DNA from: a virus
Taxonomy: Duplodnaviria > Heunggongvirae > Uroviricota > Caudoviricetes
Direction: 5' to 3' (one strand)
Length of the DNA: 29,095 nucleotides
IMG/VR virus record: IMGVR_UViG_2872158770_000007
Numbering within the stretch: position 1 is the first letter of the stretch; the number at the start of each line of letters is the position of its first letter. Below are positions 1 through 26,181 of the stretch, one piece after another. Below the pieces are notes generated by a model that searched no databases, was not told the origin of the DNA, and saw nothing but the letters and a program-made list of their open reading frames with translations. A program made the translations under genes and the position numbers.

Positions 1-795
1 TCATAGAATAGGAGAGTAAATTTCCACCTCAGGGTAATAAGCTCTAAGGTAATTTATAAGACCTTCATAAGCATTAAGAAGAGATATTTTATGTGAAATC
101 AAATCTTGTTCTATTATCAGTGCTTTATCGGATGGTAGCTCATCATAATTGAAATGACAAAGAAGATTATGATTCGCACCACCAAACACCTGAATGTTTC
201 TATTATCGGAAATCGGCAAATGTCCAGATATGATAAAATCAATATTTTTATACGAATCAATAAAACTTTGGAAATGACCGTGGAGTAATTTATCATTTAA
301 AGGATAGCTCGCTGGAAAATCCCTTAAAATACTATCAAACTGATCTCCAAAAATAAGAAGATTGATGTGAAAAGAATTAGGTAAAGTTTCAACTAATGAA
401 CGTACCCTCGCAAACGGTGTAAAGTGGAAGTAAGCGTTTAAAAAGTCCACATCTGACTGTCTTTTTTTATCTGAAAATAATGTATTATCGGTTGCACCCT
501 GTATATAAGCCTCATGTTCACTTTTGATTTGATGCAATTTTTCTACTGTATAAGTGAATGGATCTCTATCAACAAGAATATGATCATTTGCACAAAGCAG
601 GATAAGATTTTCATAAGAATTGTCATTTGCTAACAGGTCATCGCCCCTTGGTCCTTTTGGGCTTTTGGCTATTACATGAGCCATTTGTCCGATGTGAACC
701 TGCTCTTTAAAAAGAGAAGTTCGGCAAATATTACATTGCCCAGCGGATAGTCCATACAATTTTTTTATTGCTGCTGTAGTAATTGCATCACTCAT
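1..795 (-). CDS. HNH endonuclease-domain protein (N-terminal HNH, C-terminal ~170 aa domain of unknown function)
   Basis: 264-aa ORF complete within the window (stop at 1-3). N-terminal CNICRTSL...HVIAKSPKGPRGDD...NLILLCANDH matches the HNH/His-Me finger pattern (Cys pair, His, Asn, Cys-x-x-x-His). The C-terminal half has no motif I recognise. Confidence 0.6.
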   Translation of the reverse strand: MSDAITTAAIKKLYGLSAGQCNICRTSLFKEQVHIGQMAHVIAKSPKGPRGDDLLANDNSYENLILLCANDHILVDRDPFTYTVEKLHQIKSEHEAYIQGATDNTLFSDKKRQSDVDFLNAYFHFTPFARVRSLVETLPNSFHINLLIFGDQFDSILRDFPASYPLNDKLLHGHFQSFIDSYKNIDFIISGHLPISDNRNIQVFGGANHNLLCHFNYDELPSDKALIIEQDLISHKISLLNAYEGLINYLRAYYPEVEIYSPIL

Positions 796-1532: not shown

Positions 1533-2033
1533 TCAATAGATAAGGCGACGTTGTTTCTTCTCACGTAAGCCAATTACACGTTTGGTTTTCTTCTTGGTAT
1601 CTTTCTTTGCGGTATCAATTAATCGTTCTTTACCATTCTTACCCTTCACTACCTTATATCGTTCACTTAAAAGATTCTTTTTCAGTCCTGAAATGTTGCC
1701 CTGCTTAGTTAATCTTGTAGATGAAGTAGGTATAAACTTATCAATTGCCTTTGGCTGTACCAGTACTTGATAAAGGTACTTAGCCTGAATATCTTTAACC
1801 ATGATGGTCGATGTAACTGAATTTCTCCCAACCTTTCTATAGAAGAAAAGGATGGAACGTTGAGTAAAGCCCACTGCCCCACGGTCAACGCTATTATTCA
1901 AATCACCCTGCATTCTTTGGGATAGTAGCTTGGAACGTTTAATTATTTCATTCTGGAATTGATTATTTAATCTAACTCCCTGCGTTTGTATATAGTTCCT
2001 TATACTACCAATCCCATTTATTCCACTTGCCAT
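1533..2033 (-). CDS. hypothetical protein with highly basic C-terminal tail
   Basis: 166-aa ORF. The C-terminus KKDTKKKTKRVIGLREKKQRRLIY is strongly basic, suggesting nucleic-acid binding. No catalytic motif recognised. Confidence 0.4.
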   Translation of the reverse strand: MASGINGIGSIRNYIQTQGVRLNNQFQNEIIKRSKLLSQRMQGDLNNSVDRGAVGFTQRSILFFYRKVGRNSVTSTIMVKDIQAKYLYQVLVQPKAIDKFIPTSSTRLTKQGNISGLKKNLLSERYKVVKGKNGKERLIDTAKKDTKKKTKRVIGLREKKQRRLIY

Positions 2034-2042
2034 ATATTTACC

Positions 2043-2477
2043 TCAATTCAAGTACTCCAATAGTTCCTGTACTATTCCGAGTAGTCTTTTTTTATCCTTT
2101 GCATTTGGTGATCTAATCTTACTCATCATTGCCAGATTCAAACATTCCGGTTTAAGCATCTGATGAAGGATCAGTATTGCCTCTACAATCATTACCTCTC
2201 GCATAGTTGCGAAGCACCATAGAATCGTTTTTGAGTACTGTTCACCATTTTCAATTTTGTTTTTAACGACATTGGAACTACTGAGGTACTCACGCCAGCC
2301 ATTTTCCTTTGAAGTGGGCTTTAGCTTTCTCGCATCCTTAACCCGCTGATAGATTTGCTTAGCACCGACATAATTAGAACCATCCTCAAACTGAAAGATA
2401 TAAACGAAACCAGCATATTCACCGGATAACATTTCCTCCTCGCTCCAATCATCCGAGTATTTCCATTCACTCATCAT
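2043..2477 (-). CDS. putative GIY-YIG-like nuclease domain protein
   Basis: 144-aa ORF. GFVYIFQFEDGSNYVGAKQ has the Y-I-F ... Y-V-G spacing (about 10 residues) typical of the GIY-YIG motif, followed by a conserved Arg. Weak, motif-level only. Confidence 0.35.
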   Translation of the reverse strand: MMSEWKYSDDWSEEEMLSGEYAGFVYIFQFEDGSNYVGAKQIYQRVKDARKLKPTSKENGWREYLSSSNVVKNKIENGEQYSKTILWCFATMREVMIVEAILILHQMLKPECLNLAMMSKIRSPNAKDKKRLLGIVQELLEYLN

Positions 2478-2513: not shown

Positions 2514-2963
2514 ATGAGCGATTTAAAAACACGATTAAAAGAATATGAAGGTACTAAAGAGTATCAGGCAAATTTGAAGTACTTCAGAAATGGGAAATTC
2601 TATCCATATGCTGATAGTTTAGGATGTAGTACTATTGTATATGGTCACTTAATTCAGGCGGGAGAAGATTTTAGTACTGGCATTACTGAAAGCGAAGCAG
2701 ACAAGTTACTATCTCGCGATTTAGCCAAAACAATTATGCAGGTACAGACATTAGGGTTAAATCTTCCCGATGACTGGAATGATTTTATTATTATCATGAC
2801 CTTCCAGTTAGGTATTGGCGGGGTGAAGAAATTCCGTAAGATGTTAGCAGCCCTGAAAGCACATGATTACCTTGAAGCAATTAAACAGGCTAAGTGTTCT
2901 CTATGGTACAGGCAGACACCAAACCGTGTGAATTCCATGATTGCAGTACTTAAAAACAAATAA
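2514..2963 (+). CDS. phage lysozyme (endolysin), T4 lysozyme-like glycoside hydrolase family 24
   Basis: 149 aa. Collinear with T4 lysozyme: YEG (Glu11 equivalent), YADSLG (Asp20), STIVYGH (Thr26), ITESEADKLLSRDL versus T4 ITKDEAEKLFNQDV, and C-terminal SLWYRQTPNRVNSMIAVL versus T4 SRWYNQTPNRAKRVITTF. Confidence 0.9.
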   Translation: MSDLKTRLKEYEGTKEYQANLKYFRNGKFYPYADSLGCSTIVYGHLIQAGEDFSTGITESEADKLLSRDLAKTIMQVQTLGLNLPDDWNDFIIIMTFQLGIGGVKKFRKMLAALKAHDYLEAIKQAKCSLWYRQTPNRVNSMIAVLKNK

Positions 2964-2969
2964 AGAAAA

Positions 2970-3004
2970 GGCATAGTACGAATGACATACTATGCCTTTT
3001 TTTA
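2970..3004. terminator. bidirectional rho-independent terminator between convergent genes
   Basis: Perfect 9-bp stem ggcatagta / tactatgcc (2970-2978 and 2988-2996), 9-nt loop, then a T-run on the plus strand 2997-3003. An A-run (aaaagaaaag) precedes it, giving a U-tract for the minus-strand transcript. Confidence 0.7.
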
Positions 3005-3274
3005 TGGTCGTTGTTTCTGCTGAAGAATTGCAATAATCCTTTCAATCTTAACATCAAGTTCATGGATTTGTGTTTCCAGTTTACTTAGTGTATCTCTCAT
3101 CTTATCCTGATCATCCTCAATACGGGAAATACTACTTTCCAGTACAGCAATGGTAGTTTCAAGAGTAGCAACGCGAGTTAATAGATCATTCGTATCCTTT
3201 GTATTATCTCTAAAGATAGTATAAAGGAATACGCATCCAGAAATAACAAGAGCTAAAATAGCACCGATATCCAT
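3002..3274 (-). CDS. membrane-anchored coiled-coil protein (spanin-like or holin-like; function unproven)
   Basis: 90 aa. N-terminal hydrophobic segment AILALVISGCVFLYTIF followed by a heptad-like charged region (LETTIAVLESSISRIEDDQDKMRDTLSKLETQIHELDVKIERIIAILQ). AAGGGA-like Shine-Dalgarno about 8 nt upstream of the ATG. Confidence 0.4.
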   Translation of the reverse strand: MDIGAILALVISGCVFLYTIFRDNTKDTNDLLTRVATLETTIAVLESSISRIEDDQDKMRDTLSKLETQIHELDVKIERIIAILQQKQRP

Positions 3275-3287
3275 ACTGAAATCCCTT

Positions 3288-3338
3288 TGTTGTTATTGTT
3301 ATTGTTATTGTTATTGTTATTGTTATTGTTTTTGTATT
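3288..3338. repeat. hexanucleotide microsatellite (TGTTAT)n: 6 perfect units at 3291-3326 plus degenerate flanking units
   Basis: Direct reading: tgttat x6 followed by tgtttt and tgtatt. It occupies nearly the whole 59-bp spacer between the stop of the 218-aa gene (3334-3336) and the RBS/start of the 90-aa gene (3274). Confidence 0.9.
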
Positions 3339-3993
3339 AATACCCTGTAAATGTCGCCAATGCTATCTGGATACCATTATTCCCCATTGCCTGGCGGTAG
3401 GTTTTCTGGTTCTTTGAAACGTACTGTAGACTGAATGAAGTACTGGAATTACGCCTGATAACCAGACCAGAGTACCCAATTACTGTACCATCATCTGATA
3501 TGTTCCCCGGACATTGTGACCAGCAGAACCAGGGATCAGCTACTGGAGACGTTACCGTAATGGCAGTACTGAGATCGGTAGCCGCAGGTGCTGTCAAAAA
3601 TCCCCTGATACGTGGCATTGTTGCCGCTGATGCAGCAGACCAGATTAAAGTACCTTCTTCACTGAACACATCAAGAAAACCAGATGTGGGGGTAGCCGTG
3701 TGACTACTTGTCATGAACCTGCCCATGCCAGGCTGGAACATATAGGCACCAGGGAAACACCATGCCCCGTCTTTCTGTATCTGGAACCAGTACTGTGTTG
3801 TGTTCCTGTTAGCTACTACTGATGGCATAACGAAACCGAGCGATCCACCATTACCGAAGGCACAGGTAAAGCCTGTGTAGTATCCCGTATCAGTTAGATT
3901 TCCCATGGCCTTTACTGCACCCGTCATTATCGACTTGTTAGTACTATCTATAGTCAGTGCACCCGCTGAATTATATACCTCGAAACCTGCCAT
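3337..3993 (-). CDS. tail-associated hypothetical protein (paralogue of the adjacent 98-aa protein)
   Basis: 218 aa, immediately downstream of the J-like gene. N-terminus MAGFEVYNSAGALTIDSTNKSI aligns with MAQGLQCWNAAGVLVVDLTDYNI of the upstream gene. Gly/Thr/Ser-rich, beta-rich composition typical of fibre or receptor-binding proteins. Confidence 0.45.
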   Translation of the reverse strand: MAGFEVYNSAGALTIDSTNKSIMTGAVKAMGNLTDTGYYTGFTCAFGNGGSLGFVMPSVVANRNTTQYWFQIQKDGAWCFPGAYMFQPGMGRFMTSSHTATPTSGFLDVFSEEGTLIWSAASAATMPRIRGFLTAPAATDLSTAITVTSPVADPWFCWSQCPGNISDDGTVIGYSGLVIRRNSSTSFSLQYVSKNQKTYRQAMGNNGIQIALATFTGY

Positions 3994-3994
3994 C

Positions 3995-4291
3995 TTACGC
4001 CGTCCACTTATATACGTTAAAAGTGTAGTTACCAGCTAACGGTGCATATGTTGGCAAATAAACCGCAGTAAATGACCCATTATTACAAAAGGCTGACCAC
4101 TCATTAAAGGTATCACTGGCGGGGGCATAGTGTACAAACCAGCCTGTAGTTTTCATATTTGGTACTGATACAGTATAGGTCTGTGCAGAAGTAGCCTTGA
4201 CAGTATAAGTACCCATAAAACGTATGTTATAATCAGTCAGATCTACTACTAATACACCCGCTGCATTCCAACATTGTAATCCCTGTGCCAT
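3995..4291 (-). CDS. tail-associated hypothetical protein (short paralogue)
   Basis: 98 aa. Shares the N-terminal M-A-x5-N-x-A-G-x-L-x-x-D motif with the 218-aa gene. Its stop abuts the next start. Confidence 0.45.
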   Translation of the reverse strand: MAQGLQCWNAAGVLVVDLTDYNIRFMGTYTVKATSAQTYTVSVPNMKTTGWFVHYAPASDTFNEWSAFCNNGSFTAVYLPTYAPLAGNYTFNVYKWTA

Positions 4292-4448: not shown

Positions 4449-9399
<4,951 letters not shown>

Positions 9400-14645: not shown

Positions 14646-17297
14646 TTATTTATTATTTAATAGCTGTTGTACTAAATCTTTTAGCTGATTAATTTCTTCT
14701 TGTTGGGCTTGAATAGCTCCCATCAAGTCCATCACTATTGGATTTAAATCAACACGTGGATGATCACGAGTGACAATCTCCCCTTCTATTTCAACTGTTT
14801 CTTCATCATGCTTAATGTACTGCGGAGCAGTCAACTCAGCATCTTCGGCGATAACACCAAACCTAACCCTTTCTTGTTCATCATCCTTGTAGATAAACGT
14901 TACTAAATCTTGTGACATTATCCGATCTAATGCTTCAACTGGATTTGCTGGAGTTATGTCTCTTTTAAACTCACGACCTGATGTACCTTGAGCTTGCATT
15001 ACTAACCATCCAAACCATGTTGTACCGTTCCCGCCTCGTACTCTTAAAGTACCACCACCGTCTATCTGAAGCTGAGAGCGATTTGCCCCTGGGTATCTTT
15101 GCATGTGCAATAAAGGGGAATATTTTTCACTATAGTTAATACCTGAGTCACCTGGCCCTGCATACATACCGTTAAAGGTGATGGTATTGGCATCTGTCGG
15201 TCCCGAAACAGCGGTATTAGTCATCCATCCTGATTGAACATCAGTTAGGATCGTTCCAGTCGGCCCTTTTAGCCCCCATAGTTTATCCTCTGCACCATTT
15301 TCAGAAATAAAAAGGGTGAGATCAGCCTGTCCAGTCTGTCCCATCGTTTTACCAACCCGAAAACCACCAGATATTTCAGTTGATGTACCAATGTTGCATA
15401 TCGAACGAATACGCCCTCCAGTTACATAACTACCAATTGCCGTAGAGGAAGGGGAAGAAGCAATAACATCCCATTGAGGACTAACTGAAGTACGACTACT
15501 CAGCAAGTTTTCAACCCAGCGTTTGGTAGTCGCGTCAGAATCAGAGACAGGATCTCCTGCTAAAGAAGTTGCACCCGTAGGACGAATCGCAGGCCATAAC
15601 TCAGCCTGAGTCTTAACACCAGTACCGCCCTGCGGAATTGCTAATGCTTTCCAGCCAGTGAAAGCACCCGCAATATATGTAGCTGAACCCCATTGCCCTC
15701 CATCATAAACCACTAATGCAGCGGAAGAATCAGCGGATTTAATAGTTGTTAAATTACTACCTTGATTAAAGCGATCCACCTGAAAGTTTAGGCGAGCACT
15801 CAAAGCATCTGTAGCCCCTGTCCCCCCCTGACCTATACCTAAAGCAATCCATCCAGTACCAGTACTTGCACCCCATGCCCCGTTATCCTGAATTCGGATA
15901 CGGTTAGTCAGGTCATTACTCATCAGATCGGTGTACGTAGCACCCTGAGTCAAACGGTTCACCTGTAGGTTAGTACGTGCTGTAGAGAGACTGGATAGAT
16001 CAGAAAGGTTACTCGCTTTCTTCATGGAAGCGGAATCAAGGGAAGTAATACTGTCAGCTAAAGCCGTTACCTCTGCATCTACTTCATCCATTGAGTAAAC
16101 AGCAAGGTTAATACGTGCTTCTTCCACGTCCCCCAGATCACTTAGATTACCTGCTATCGTAAGCTGGGCATCATCTGTAACCTTCCCTAAGCCAACATCA
16201 GTACTGGTAAGTACTACATCCTCACTGAGTACATGACCGTTGACCATACGTGTATCAGGTACTGAACCTGTATCTTCACTACTCAGTACTACATTTTCAC
16301 TAAGTACATGACCGTTCACTGTACGCGTGTCAGGTACTGAACCTGTATCTTCACTACTCAGTACTATATCTTCACTGAGTACATGACCATTAACTGTCCG
16401 TGTATCTGGTACAGAGCCGGTATCAGTACTGGTAAGTACTACATCCTCACTTAGAGGCTTACCATTCACAGTACGTGTATCAGGTACTGAACCTGTATCT
16501 TCACTGTTCAGTACTAAATTGGCCGTGAGTGCATGGCCGTTGATGGTACGTGTAAGGGGTACGTATCGCCCGTCCATCTGTGTAGCGGTATATATGCGTG
16601 TCCAGGCGGTTGTAGCGTTCTTTGCATAGATACTTAGAGTACCCGTCTTTGTCATCGCAAGAGAACTTACAGTAGTGCCATCTACAAGCCCTACTCCCAT
16701 CAGATCCGCCCCGGCAGGATTGCCTGCTTGAGATGATGGTACTTTGATGAAGCTGTTACCCGTAGGTACTGATGGTGAGTACTGAGGTACATCCGTAGTG
16801 TTCGAACCTAAACCGTAGTCCCCCTGATAGATTGGCGATAGTGCGTTAATGGTCATTGCACGTGCGATCACATCATGTGGGGCAAAACTGTATGCCTTGG
16901 TTACTACTGAACCTTTATCACCGTCCAACTTATAAGAGGTGATATAACCATTCACCATCGCATAAGTAATGGTATTTTCATCCTTATTCATCTGGTACTG
17001 AATGATGATCTGGAAAAGCTGCTGAGACTTAGCGGCATTATCCAAGAATTGATGTGTAGGATCATCAGGTAGGTAGTTAACTACAATATCAAATGGTGCT
17101 ACTGATTTATCAGATAGTAGTACTGTCCTGTAATCACTATCATACGTTTCAAAATTATTTGCTTCTGAATTTATTGTTAAGGTTGGAAAAGTATTAATCT
17201 GTTTAATTACTACATTGCCTGCTCCCTGTGGTGTTCTGTTACCAATATCAGCATTATACTGTACTGATAATTCTCTTCCTGAGAAAATATCACTCAT
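14646..17297 (-). CDS. tail-tube-domain protein fused to a repeat-containing fibre with C-terminal intramolecular chaperone (peptidase S74-like) domain
   Basis: 883 aa. Residues 1-150 align with the 157-aa tail tube protein (DIFSG..L.V, NTF.T, VNYLPDD..HQ.L, GDK..VVTK). Five tandem 25-aa repeats (PDTRTVNGHVLSEDVVLSSEDTGSV). Phage-fibre motifs GQGGTGATDALSARLNFQV and PQGGTGVKT. C-terminus SGREFKRDITP...RFGVIAEDAEL...QEEINQLKDL resembles the self-cleaving chaperone of tail fibres and endosialidases. Confidence 0.6.
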   Translation of the reverse strand: MSDIFSGRELSVQYNADIGNRTPQGAGNVVIKQINTFPTLTINSEANNFETYDSDYRTVLLSDKSVAPFDIVVNYLPDDPTHQFLDNAAKSQQLFQIIIQYQMNKDENTITYAMVNGYITSYKLDGDKGSVVTKAYSFAPHDVIARAMTINALSPIYQGDYGLGSNTTDVPQYSPSVPTGNSFIKVPSSQAGNPAGADLMGVGLVDGTTVSSLAMTKTGTLSIYAKNATTAWTRIYTATQMDGRYVPLTRTINGHALTANLVLNSEDTGSVPDTRTVNGKPLSEDVVLTSTDTGSVPDTRTVNGHVLSEDIVLSSEDTGSVPDTRTVNGHVLSENVVLSSEDTGSVPDTRMVNGHVLSEDVVLTSTDVGLGKVTDDAQLTIAGNLSDLGDVEEARINLAVYSMDEVDAEVTALADSITSLDSASMKKASNLSDLSSLSTARTNLQVNRLTQGATYTDLMSNDLTNRIRIQDNGAWGASTGTGWIALGIGQGGTGATDALSARLNFQVDRFNQGSNLTTIKSADSSAALVVYDGGQWGSATYIAGAFTGWKALAIPQGGTGVKTQAELWPAIRPTGATSLAGDPVSDSDATTKRWVENLLSSRTSVSPQWDVIASSPSSTAIGSYVTGGRIRSICNIGTSTEISGGFRVGKTMGQTGQADLTLFISENGAEDKLWGLKGPTGTILTDVQSGWMTNTAVSGPTDANTITFNGMYAGPGDSGINYSEKYSPLLHMQRYPGANRSQLQIDGGGTLRVRGGNGTTWFGWLVMQAQGTSGREFKRDITPANPVEALDRIMSQDLVTFIYKDDEQERVRFGVIAEDAELTAPQYIKHDEETVEIEGEIVTRDHPRVDLNPIVMDLMGAIQAQQEEINQLKDLVQQLLNNK
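16180..16560. repeat. tandem 75-bp direct repeats (about 5 copies) inside the fibre gene
   Basis: The unit tcaggtactgaacctgtatcttcact... recurs at 16255, 16330, (variant) 16405 and 16480. It encodes the 25-aa protein repeat. Confidence 0.85.

Positions 17298-18045: not shown

Positions 18046-23388
<5,343 letters not shown>

Positions 23389-23796: not shown

Positions 23797-26181
<2,385 letters not shown>

Follow-up and report, generated by a model that had tools for sequence, protein, structure and literature searches.

The 29,095-nucleotide (nt) stretch of DNA held as IMG/VR virus record IMGVR_UViG_2872158770_000007, hereafter the window, carries a hexanucleotide tandem array in the spacer between what appear to be the two final genes of a tail/late operon in a prophage, directly in front of a gene for a 90-amino-acid (aa) putative membrane protein. 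Among near-identical copies of this locus the array differs in length by whole repeat units, and more diverged relatives with a single unit are invariant. We infer that the array is probably a variable-number tandem repeat (VNTR) that is driven by slippage and whose length changes are nearly neutral. A graded effect on the translation of the 90-aa protein, through the length of the leader or through binding of Hfq or S1 to the (AAN)n RNA, is possible.

The repeat array and its spacer

Coordinates throughout are those of the window, and the genes and the mRNA of the repeat locus lie on the minus strand. Direct reading from the stop codon of the upstream gene, which encodes a 218-aa protein (TAA, 3337-3339), to the start codon of the 90-aa gene (ATG, 3272-3274) gives a spacer of 62 nt (3275-3336). 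On the mRNA strand, and together with the two codons that bound it, the spacer reads TAA-TAC-AAAAAC-(AATAAC)6-AACAAA-GGGATT-TCAGT-ATG, the segment 3' of AACAAA up to the ATG being GGGATTTCAGT. The sequence AACAAAGGGATTTCAGTATG and the last 20 nt 5' of the ATG are invariant among all S. sonnei-type alleles.

An earlier reading, made from the letters of the window alone (the sequence-only reading), had described (TGTTAT)6 and degenerate units in front of the ribosome-binding site of the 90-aa gene, and this description is confirmed by direct reading, by Tandem Repeats Finder and by simulations. The (TGTTAT)6 of the plus strand corresponds to (AATAAC)6 on the minus strand and to (AUAACA)6 in RNA. 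The same reading had put the spacer at 59 bp and had the array filling almost all of it; the measured length is 62 nt, of which the array and the degenerate units AAAAAC (3328-3333) and AACAAA (3286-3291) cover 48 nt. At its 3' end the array abuts the GGG (3283-3285) of the Shine-Dalgarno sequence.

The array is genuine and its length is far above chance. Tandem Repeats Finder places it at 3290-3335, with a period of 6, 7.7 copies, 97% matches and a score of 85, and reports it as the sole array of such type in the window. The longest perfect period-6 tract measures 41 bp (3290-3330), whereas the longest tract of this period averaged 13.5 bp, with a maximum of 18 bp, when the window was simulated 300 times (Markov-1).

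Copy-number variation among relatives

Loci for comparison were gathered from IMG/VR, from species-representative genomes, from metagenomes and from contigs with exactly the same neighbouring proteins. Among them, 23 independent, near-identical S. sonnei-type copies show only three segregating sites in 700 + 700 nt of flanking sequence and, at the same time, 10 spacer alleles of 44 to 86 nt, each step in length being exactly 6 nt, with 2-10 perfect units. Four alleles have the structure TAC-(AATAAC)n, with n = 5, 6, 7 or 8 and spacers of 50, 56, 62 and 68 nt; another four are TAC-AAAAAC-(AATAAC)n, with n = 6, 8, 9 or 10 and spacers of 62, 74, 80 and 86 nt. The remaining two are TAC-(AAAAAC)2-(AATAAC)6, with a spacer of 68 nt, and TATAAATAC-AAAAAC-(AATAAC)2, with a spacer of 44 nt. 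The lengths of 62 and 68 nt are therefore each reached by two allele structures and, moreover, each background defined by the flanking single-nucleotide polymorphism (SNP) carries several copy numbers. Where the 1,400 flanking sites have three substitutions, the spacer has undergone at least nine changes in length.

In five relatives, each 3-4% diverged from the window as well as from the other four, the spacer is 38 nt long and holds one AATAAC unit. Instability thus depends on copy number: the one-unit tract is fixed in these five relatives, and the lineage with at least two units is polymorphic. The sequence-only reading had expected slipped-strand length variation, and this expectation proved right, since unit number is not invariant across relatives (2-10 units in the S. 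sonnei copies and one in the five relatives) and changes in exact 6-nt steps. In distant relatives (from Enterobacter, E. coli, Scandinavium, Pluralibacter and metagenomes) the spacer is A-rich, 34-46 nt long, free of any array and invariant within each group; scans of species-representative genomes and of metagenomes returned only such distant relatives, without arrays.

A separate feature of these spacers is the motif ATAAATAC, conserved in the spacers of all relatives (loci L005-L018 and L052-L065) about 30-35 nt 5' of the ATG of the 90-aa homologue, and kept even where the upstream gene is J and not the DUF8377 gene. Its equivalent in the window is the region 3330-3345. In the S. sonnei alleles with and without the degenerate 5' unit (B and C alleles, respectively) it is half deleted, TAA-TATAAATAC having become TAA-TAC. 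As a -10 element the motif was not convincing.

Host and decay of the prophage

The window is a defective S. sonnei prophage, copied along with the chromosome of its host. The identical 90-aa protein occurs in about 590 blocks of public assemblies, whose named sources are Shigella sonnei and a few E. coli; one of the sequences that encode it is the chromosome of S. sonnei 53G (HE616528.1). At the nucleotide level no match to the window was found in INPHARED (megablast and blastn) or in complete E. coli genomes; kinship with known phages is seen at the protein level only, with 37-45% identity to HK639 and T1-like phages. The window contains siphovirus head, tail and lysis genes (terminase, portal, fused protease-capsid, tape measure, J, endolysin). 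The description of the sequence as phage DNA needs qualification in that the prophage is defective and replicates with the Shigella chromosome.

The prophage is decaying, as is seen from insertion sequence (IS) elements, from a frameshift and from an IS within the 90-aa gene itself. An IS transposase open reading frame (ORF) at 7399-8238 on the minus strand (phrog_157, E = 1.5e-124) cuts the J-like gene to 1006 aa, where intact copies have 1100 aa, and a second one lies at 23803-24708 on the plus strand (phrog_157, E = 1.1e-93). Other strains, including 53G and CP179990, have IS elements elsewhere in J. The ORF at 1533-2033 (minus strand) carries a 1-nt frameshift that shortens its product to 166 aa, whereas L019 and the majority of strains have 192 aa; L034 (CP026802.1) and L049 share the truncation. 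Finally, in L035 (GCA_026013135.1, 2157-2350) an IS interrupts the 90-aa gene behind approximately its 17th codon, which indicates that this gene is dispensable for the lysogen.

Origin of the array and its possible effects

From these data a course of events can be proposed. The ancestral spacer would have been 38 nt long, TATAAATAC-AAAAAC-AATAAC-AACAAAGAGG..., and would even then have been made up of degenerate 6-nt units. Duplication of AATAAC would have followed in the S. sonnei lineage and, with a few copies present, the tract would have become hypermutable, gaining and losing whole units by slipped-strand mispairing during replication of the S. sonnei chromosome. Placed in an untranslated spacer, the repeat would add to the mRNA a single-stranded A-rich extension of a leader that was A-rich before. 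Such changes in length would be tolerated in a decaying prophage, with at most a graded change in the translation of the 90-aa membrane protein. Whole-unit mutations ascribed to slipped-strand mispairing occur at 4e-5 to 2e-3 per generation in 6-bp VNTRs of E. coli O157 (PMC3777172), and hypervariable 6-7-bp VNTRs are documented in S. sonnei (PMC3310650), so that the repeat described here is unsurprising as a class.

Contingency loci usually have this layout too, with a hypervariable simple-sequence repeat immediately 5' of the gene for a membrane protein, and the array could be read as a classical phase-variation switch in which gain or loss of units toggles the 90-aa gene, either through the spacing of the -35 and -10 elements or through the reading frame. 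The details of the locus make this very unlikely. No frameshift is possible, because the array is intergenic and its 6-nt unit is a multiple of 3, and the distance from the Shine-Dalgarno sequence to the ATG is equal in all alleles, because the array lies upstream of both. A consensus scan of the coding strand found no sigma-70-like site with 9 of 12 matches in or around the spacer. The best candidate of a laxer scan, TTAATA-16-AACAAT (8/12), was discarded as the basis of a promoter-spacing switch, since its hexamer spacing is fixed at any copy number, and the promoter-like matches found in relatives lie at inconsistent and implausible positions. Furthermore, the 90-aa gene is probably co-transcribed with the 218-aa gene, since the two share a strand with 62 nt between them and no terminator was found except the one that follows the 90-aa gene. 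Being outside the frame, 5' of the Shine-Dalgarno sequence and in no detectable promoter, the array is very unlikely to be an on/off switch. An effect of copy number through RNA structure was likewise rejected: when the mRNA was folded with 0-16 units, the repeat was predicted to be 0.87-0.93 unpaired at two or more units, and for the stretch between Shine-Dalgarno and AUG the predicted accessibility stayed within 0.50-0.52. A predicted 10-bp AU-rich pairing of the stop-codon region with the start-codon region was dropped, as on inspection it did not recur in relatives. Many copies in the sample come from draft assemblies of short reads, in which repeats may be collapsed or expanded, but that the allele ladder is an artefact of this kind is hardly credible. 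In fact, the arrays (30-66 bp) are below read length, the same alleles appear in independent assemblies, the structural subtypes track the flanking SNP, and three finished chromosomes differ in their units (HE616528.1 with 5 units, CP026802.1 with AAAAAC + 6, CP179990.1 with AAAAAC + 10).

The idea that the copy number of a single-stranded (AAN)n leader tunes the translation of the 90-aa protein in a graded manner, as a rheostat, can be entertained tentatively. The leader might act as an A-rich S1 enhancer or standby site, or a longer spacer might lengthen the path of the terminating ribosome to re-initiation and so weaken translational coupling, or the RNA might be bound by Hfq. In support of such tuning, the RNA has an (AAN)16 run that extends up to the Shine-Dalgarno GGG, whereas the second longest such run of the 29-kb window has 6 triplets (triplet scan); the predicted probability that the (AAN)16 run is unpaired is 0.91. 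Through its distal face, Hfq binds (ARN)n with n = 3-6 and a preference for AAN, and the (AAN)3 of the E. coli mutS leader is enough for translational repression independent of small RNAs (PMC5580658); compared with the at least 3-6 triplets required, the array offers 16, predicted to be single-stranded and abutting the Shine-Dalgarno sequence. The operator of P. aeruginosa amiE, AAAAAUAACAACAAGAGG, which overlaps the amiE Shine-Dalgarno sequence and is taken here from a construct sequence, nearly equals the ancestral spacer AAAAACAAUAACAACAAAGAGG (PMC8266614). In addition, an Infernal/Rfam search with an E-value threshold gives an alignment of the array with A-rich motifs at the 5' end of the Hfq sponge RNA CrcZ (25 bits, E = 1.5e-4), AAN runs are longer than composition predicts in 6 of 10 relatives, and spacer length is otherwise conserved. 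However, the CrcZ match scores far less than the gathering threshold and was absent when the search was narrowed; AAN runs show no conservation in L010, L011 and L018 (p 0.8-0.9), and those of the relatives are low-complexity (AAT)n tracts, which slippage would make anyway. A-rich leaders also precede other genes of the window, the three sub-mechanisms predict opposite signs, and the expansion is restricted to a decaying prophage in which the 90-aa gene can be lost. Conservation of AAN runs was not convincing as a sign of selection, being mixed across relatives. A CrcZ homologue (RF01675) was rejected at 25.2 bits against a gathering score of 95, with only the A-rich 5' and U-rich 3' ends aligned, and the search for known RNA families gave only sub-threshold low-complexity matches, namely CrcZ and, at the terminator, STnc40. 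The more specific proposal that the array is a copy-number-variable Hfq operator, tuning the translation of a conserved membrane protein in a heritable yet reversible way, appears improbable; three hexanucleotide units (18 nt) would occupy the distal face of one Hfq hexamer, and slippage would alter the number of hexamers loaded near the Shine-Dalgarno sequence. The link with Hfq thus appears to be one of resemblance and not of membership.

A near-neutral VNTR is most likely in view of the position of the array, which is not that of a switch, of its unstructured A-rich RNA and of the decay of the prophage. Frame, promoter, Shine-Dalgarno spacing and structure are all unchanged by copy number; moreover, expansion is restricted to the lineage in which the prophage decays, and an IS can destroy the downstream gene. 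Several points weigh against near-neutrality. Compared with diverged relatives, the 90-aa gene has 2-5 synonymous and 0 amino-acid differences, which is indicative of purifying selection on the protein in the wider population and suggests that the leader may matter in functional phages. The pairing of the 90-aa homologues with a convergent endolysin gene counts in the same direction. The spacer is held at 34-46 nt in every other lineage, so that lengths of 50-86 nt might have consequences in a functional phage. The likeness of the (AAN)16 run to a validated Hfq operator and to CrcZ motifs suggests that the RNA may not be inert. Several long-array S. sonnei copies keep an intact 1100-aa J gene, and expansion of the array is therefore not simply a consequence of the lesion in J. 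Lastly, near-duplicate places were left out of the sampling, and allele frequencies are for this reason not representative.

Relation to known repeats and leaders

The array closely resembles the VNTRs used in multiple-locus VNTR analysis (MLVA) of S. sonnei (SS1-SS26) and E. coli O157:H7 (TR4, O157-10 and others), with which it shares short perfect head-to-tail units, whole-unit changes between clonal isolates, instability that depends on copy number, and slipped-strand mispairing, the accepted mechanism there and the probable one here (PMC3310650; PMC3777172). Unlike these loci, it lies in the spacer of a prophage operon, and relatives allow its origin to be traced back to a single unit. None of the forward primers of SS1, 3, 6, 9, 10, 11 and 13 (7 of the 26 loci; PMC3420240) matches the window at up to 3 mismatches, and the remaining 6-bp loci, SS15 and SS17, have 2-4 repeats (PMC3310650), which the 5-11 units found here do not fit. 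No such repeat unit is present in the S. flexneri MLVA supplement, and a search of the literature for this repeat motif with Shigella and VNTR found no description of the locus. The array belongs to a well-known kind, the bacterial VNTR, and the locus itself is one for which no description was found.

The 7-bp repeats of Haemophilus influenzae hmw1A and hmw2A and the AGAT repeats in the 5' untranslated region of Moraxella catarrhalis uspA2 are rheostats for which copy-number-dependent expression has been measured. As in those genes, the repeat precedes the start codon of a gene for a surface or membrane protein and follows the transcription start or the upstream gene, and its copy number could act on expression by degree and not as a switch; unlike them, it stands in a decaying prophage, and an effect of copy number on expression is here a hypothesis. 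To our knowledge, enterobacteria are not noted for contingency loci of the rheostat type. With the Hfq operators amiE6ARN, CrcZ and mutS (AAN)3 the array shares uninterrupted A-A-N triplets at or overlapping the Shine-Dalgarno sequence, single-stranded in those operators and predicted to be so here. The known operators have 3-6 triplets and a fixed length, whereas the array has 16 (12-24 across alleles), is polymorphic in length and would be a putative operator; enterobacteria, as far as we know, are without Crc. A-rich or CAA-rich unstructured leaders are known as translational enhancers, among them S1-dependent enhancers and those of the tobacco mosaic virus omega type. They have in common with the present locus a G-poor, A-rich and structure-free RNA just 5' of the ribosome-binding site; such leaders are fixed and selected, while the long array is a lineage-specific addition to a conserved A-rich spacer of 34-46 nt.

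Gene context and other features of the window

According to the ORF list, the minus-strand order, from 5' to 3', is the J-like tail-tip gene, a 98-aa gene, the 218-aa gene, the spacer and the 90-aa gene, followed by a strong terminator hairpin. The features of the locus are collected in Table 1.

Table 1. Features of the repeat locus and of the neighbouring genes (window coordinates; B and C denote the allele groups described in the text).
Feature	Position	Strand	Basis and remarks
Intercistronic spacer, 62 nt	3275-3336	-	read directly; relatives' alleles 38-86 nt
Six perfect AATAAC units, variable VNTR core	3292-3327	-	other copies have 1, 2, 5, 6, 7, 8, 9 or 10 units
Degenerate 5' unit AAAAAC	3328-3333	-	in B alleles, not in C alleles; doubled in L044
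16 uninterrupted A-A-N triplets in RNA, ending at Shine-Dalgarno	3286-3333	-	triplet scan; predicted about 90% single-stranded
Shine-Dalgarno AAGGGA	3282-3287	-	read directly; GGG-to-ATG 8 nt
90-aa downstream cistron, N-terminal transmembrane helix and coiled coil	3002-3274	-	ORF list; last gene of transcription unit
218-aa upstream cistron	3337-3993	-	phrog_4524 at 1.6e-54; Pfam DUF8377
98-aa gene	3995-4291	-	ORF list
J-like tail-tip gene	4449-7469	-	1006-aa GTG-start remnant in the window
Intrinsic terminator hairpin, 15-bp stem and T run	2966-3000	-	terminator scan; common to the convergent endolysin gene
Endolysin gene (Phage_lysozyme), convergent	2514-2963	+	Pfam PF00959, 3.7e-10

Homologues of the 218-aa protein with 37-45% identity are encoded after the tail-tip gene in HK639 and T1-like phages. 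For the 90-aa protein, comparison with Pfam, PHROG, NCBIfam, PADLOC and PDB sequences gave just coiled-coil noise or weak matches, such as phrog_1009 (4.6e-6), the Rz-like spanin family phrog_739 (2.7e-5) and, below the Pfam cutoff, PspA/IM30. As regards an Rz-like i-spanin, a transmembrane helix and a coiled coil are visible in the sequence, the match to phrog_739 is weak at this E-value, and no ORF with a lipobox, as expected of an o-spanin partner, is embedded in or adjacent to the gene. In relatives down to 59% identity (L019-L065), the transmembrane/coiled-coil gene and an endolysin gene without exception converge on a common terminator, and this constant pairing is a hint that the 90-aa protein may have a role related to lysis. 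As for the features of a moron (an autonomously expressed prophage gene), a terminator is present at 2966-3000, no convincing promoter was found, and in all relatives the 90-aa gene is kept together with the tail/endolysin module and is not sporadic. The sub-threshold STnc40 match, on the plus strand, is the same hairpin as this terminator.

Next to the lone plus-strand endolysin gene lies a GIY-YIG SegE-like homing endonuclease gene (2043-2477, minus strand), whose product has 129, 143 or 144 aa among strains. The 264-aa ORF at 1-795 (minus strand) matches, with its N-terminal 100 residues or so, CBASS/SAVED HNH endonuclease effectors (PADLOC, best E = 4e-23). A tandem repeat of another sort, of 75/150 bp, is found at 16210-16554 (4.1 x 75 bp, about 80% identity) within an 883-aa tail-fibre-like gene (14646-17297, minus strand) and probably encodes repeated domains. 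The 614-aa ORF at 18046-19890 (minus strand) matches families of major head proteins and of head-maturation proteases (phrog_617, phrog_4523 and phrog_80) and looks like the fused protease-capsid gene.

Significance

The locus could serve in practice as an extra high-resolution marker for the typing of S. sonnei; conversely, differences in spacer length at this position carry little phylogenetic weight and call for caution. If the lead towards Hfq were true, slippage of a repeat would have a new, post-transcriptional route to tune expression, with a microsatellite acting through an RNA chaperone and not through frame or promoter spacing. On present evidence the array is most likely an ordinary VNTR, carried by a prophage in decay. 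As such, the locus cleanly illustrates, in an enterobacterial genome, the natural life cycle of a microsatellite: a proto-repeat that was stable as one copy was duplicated and then became hypermutable.

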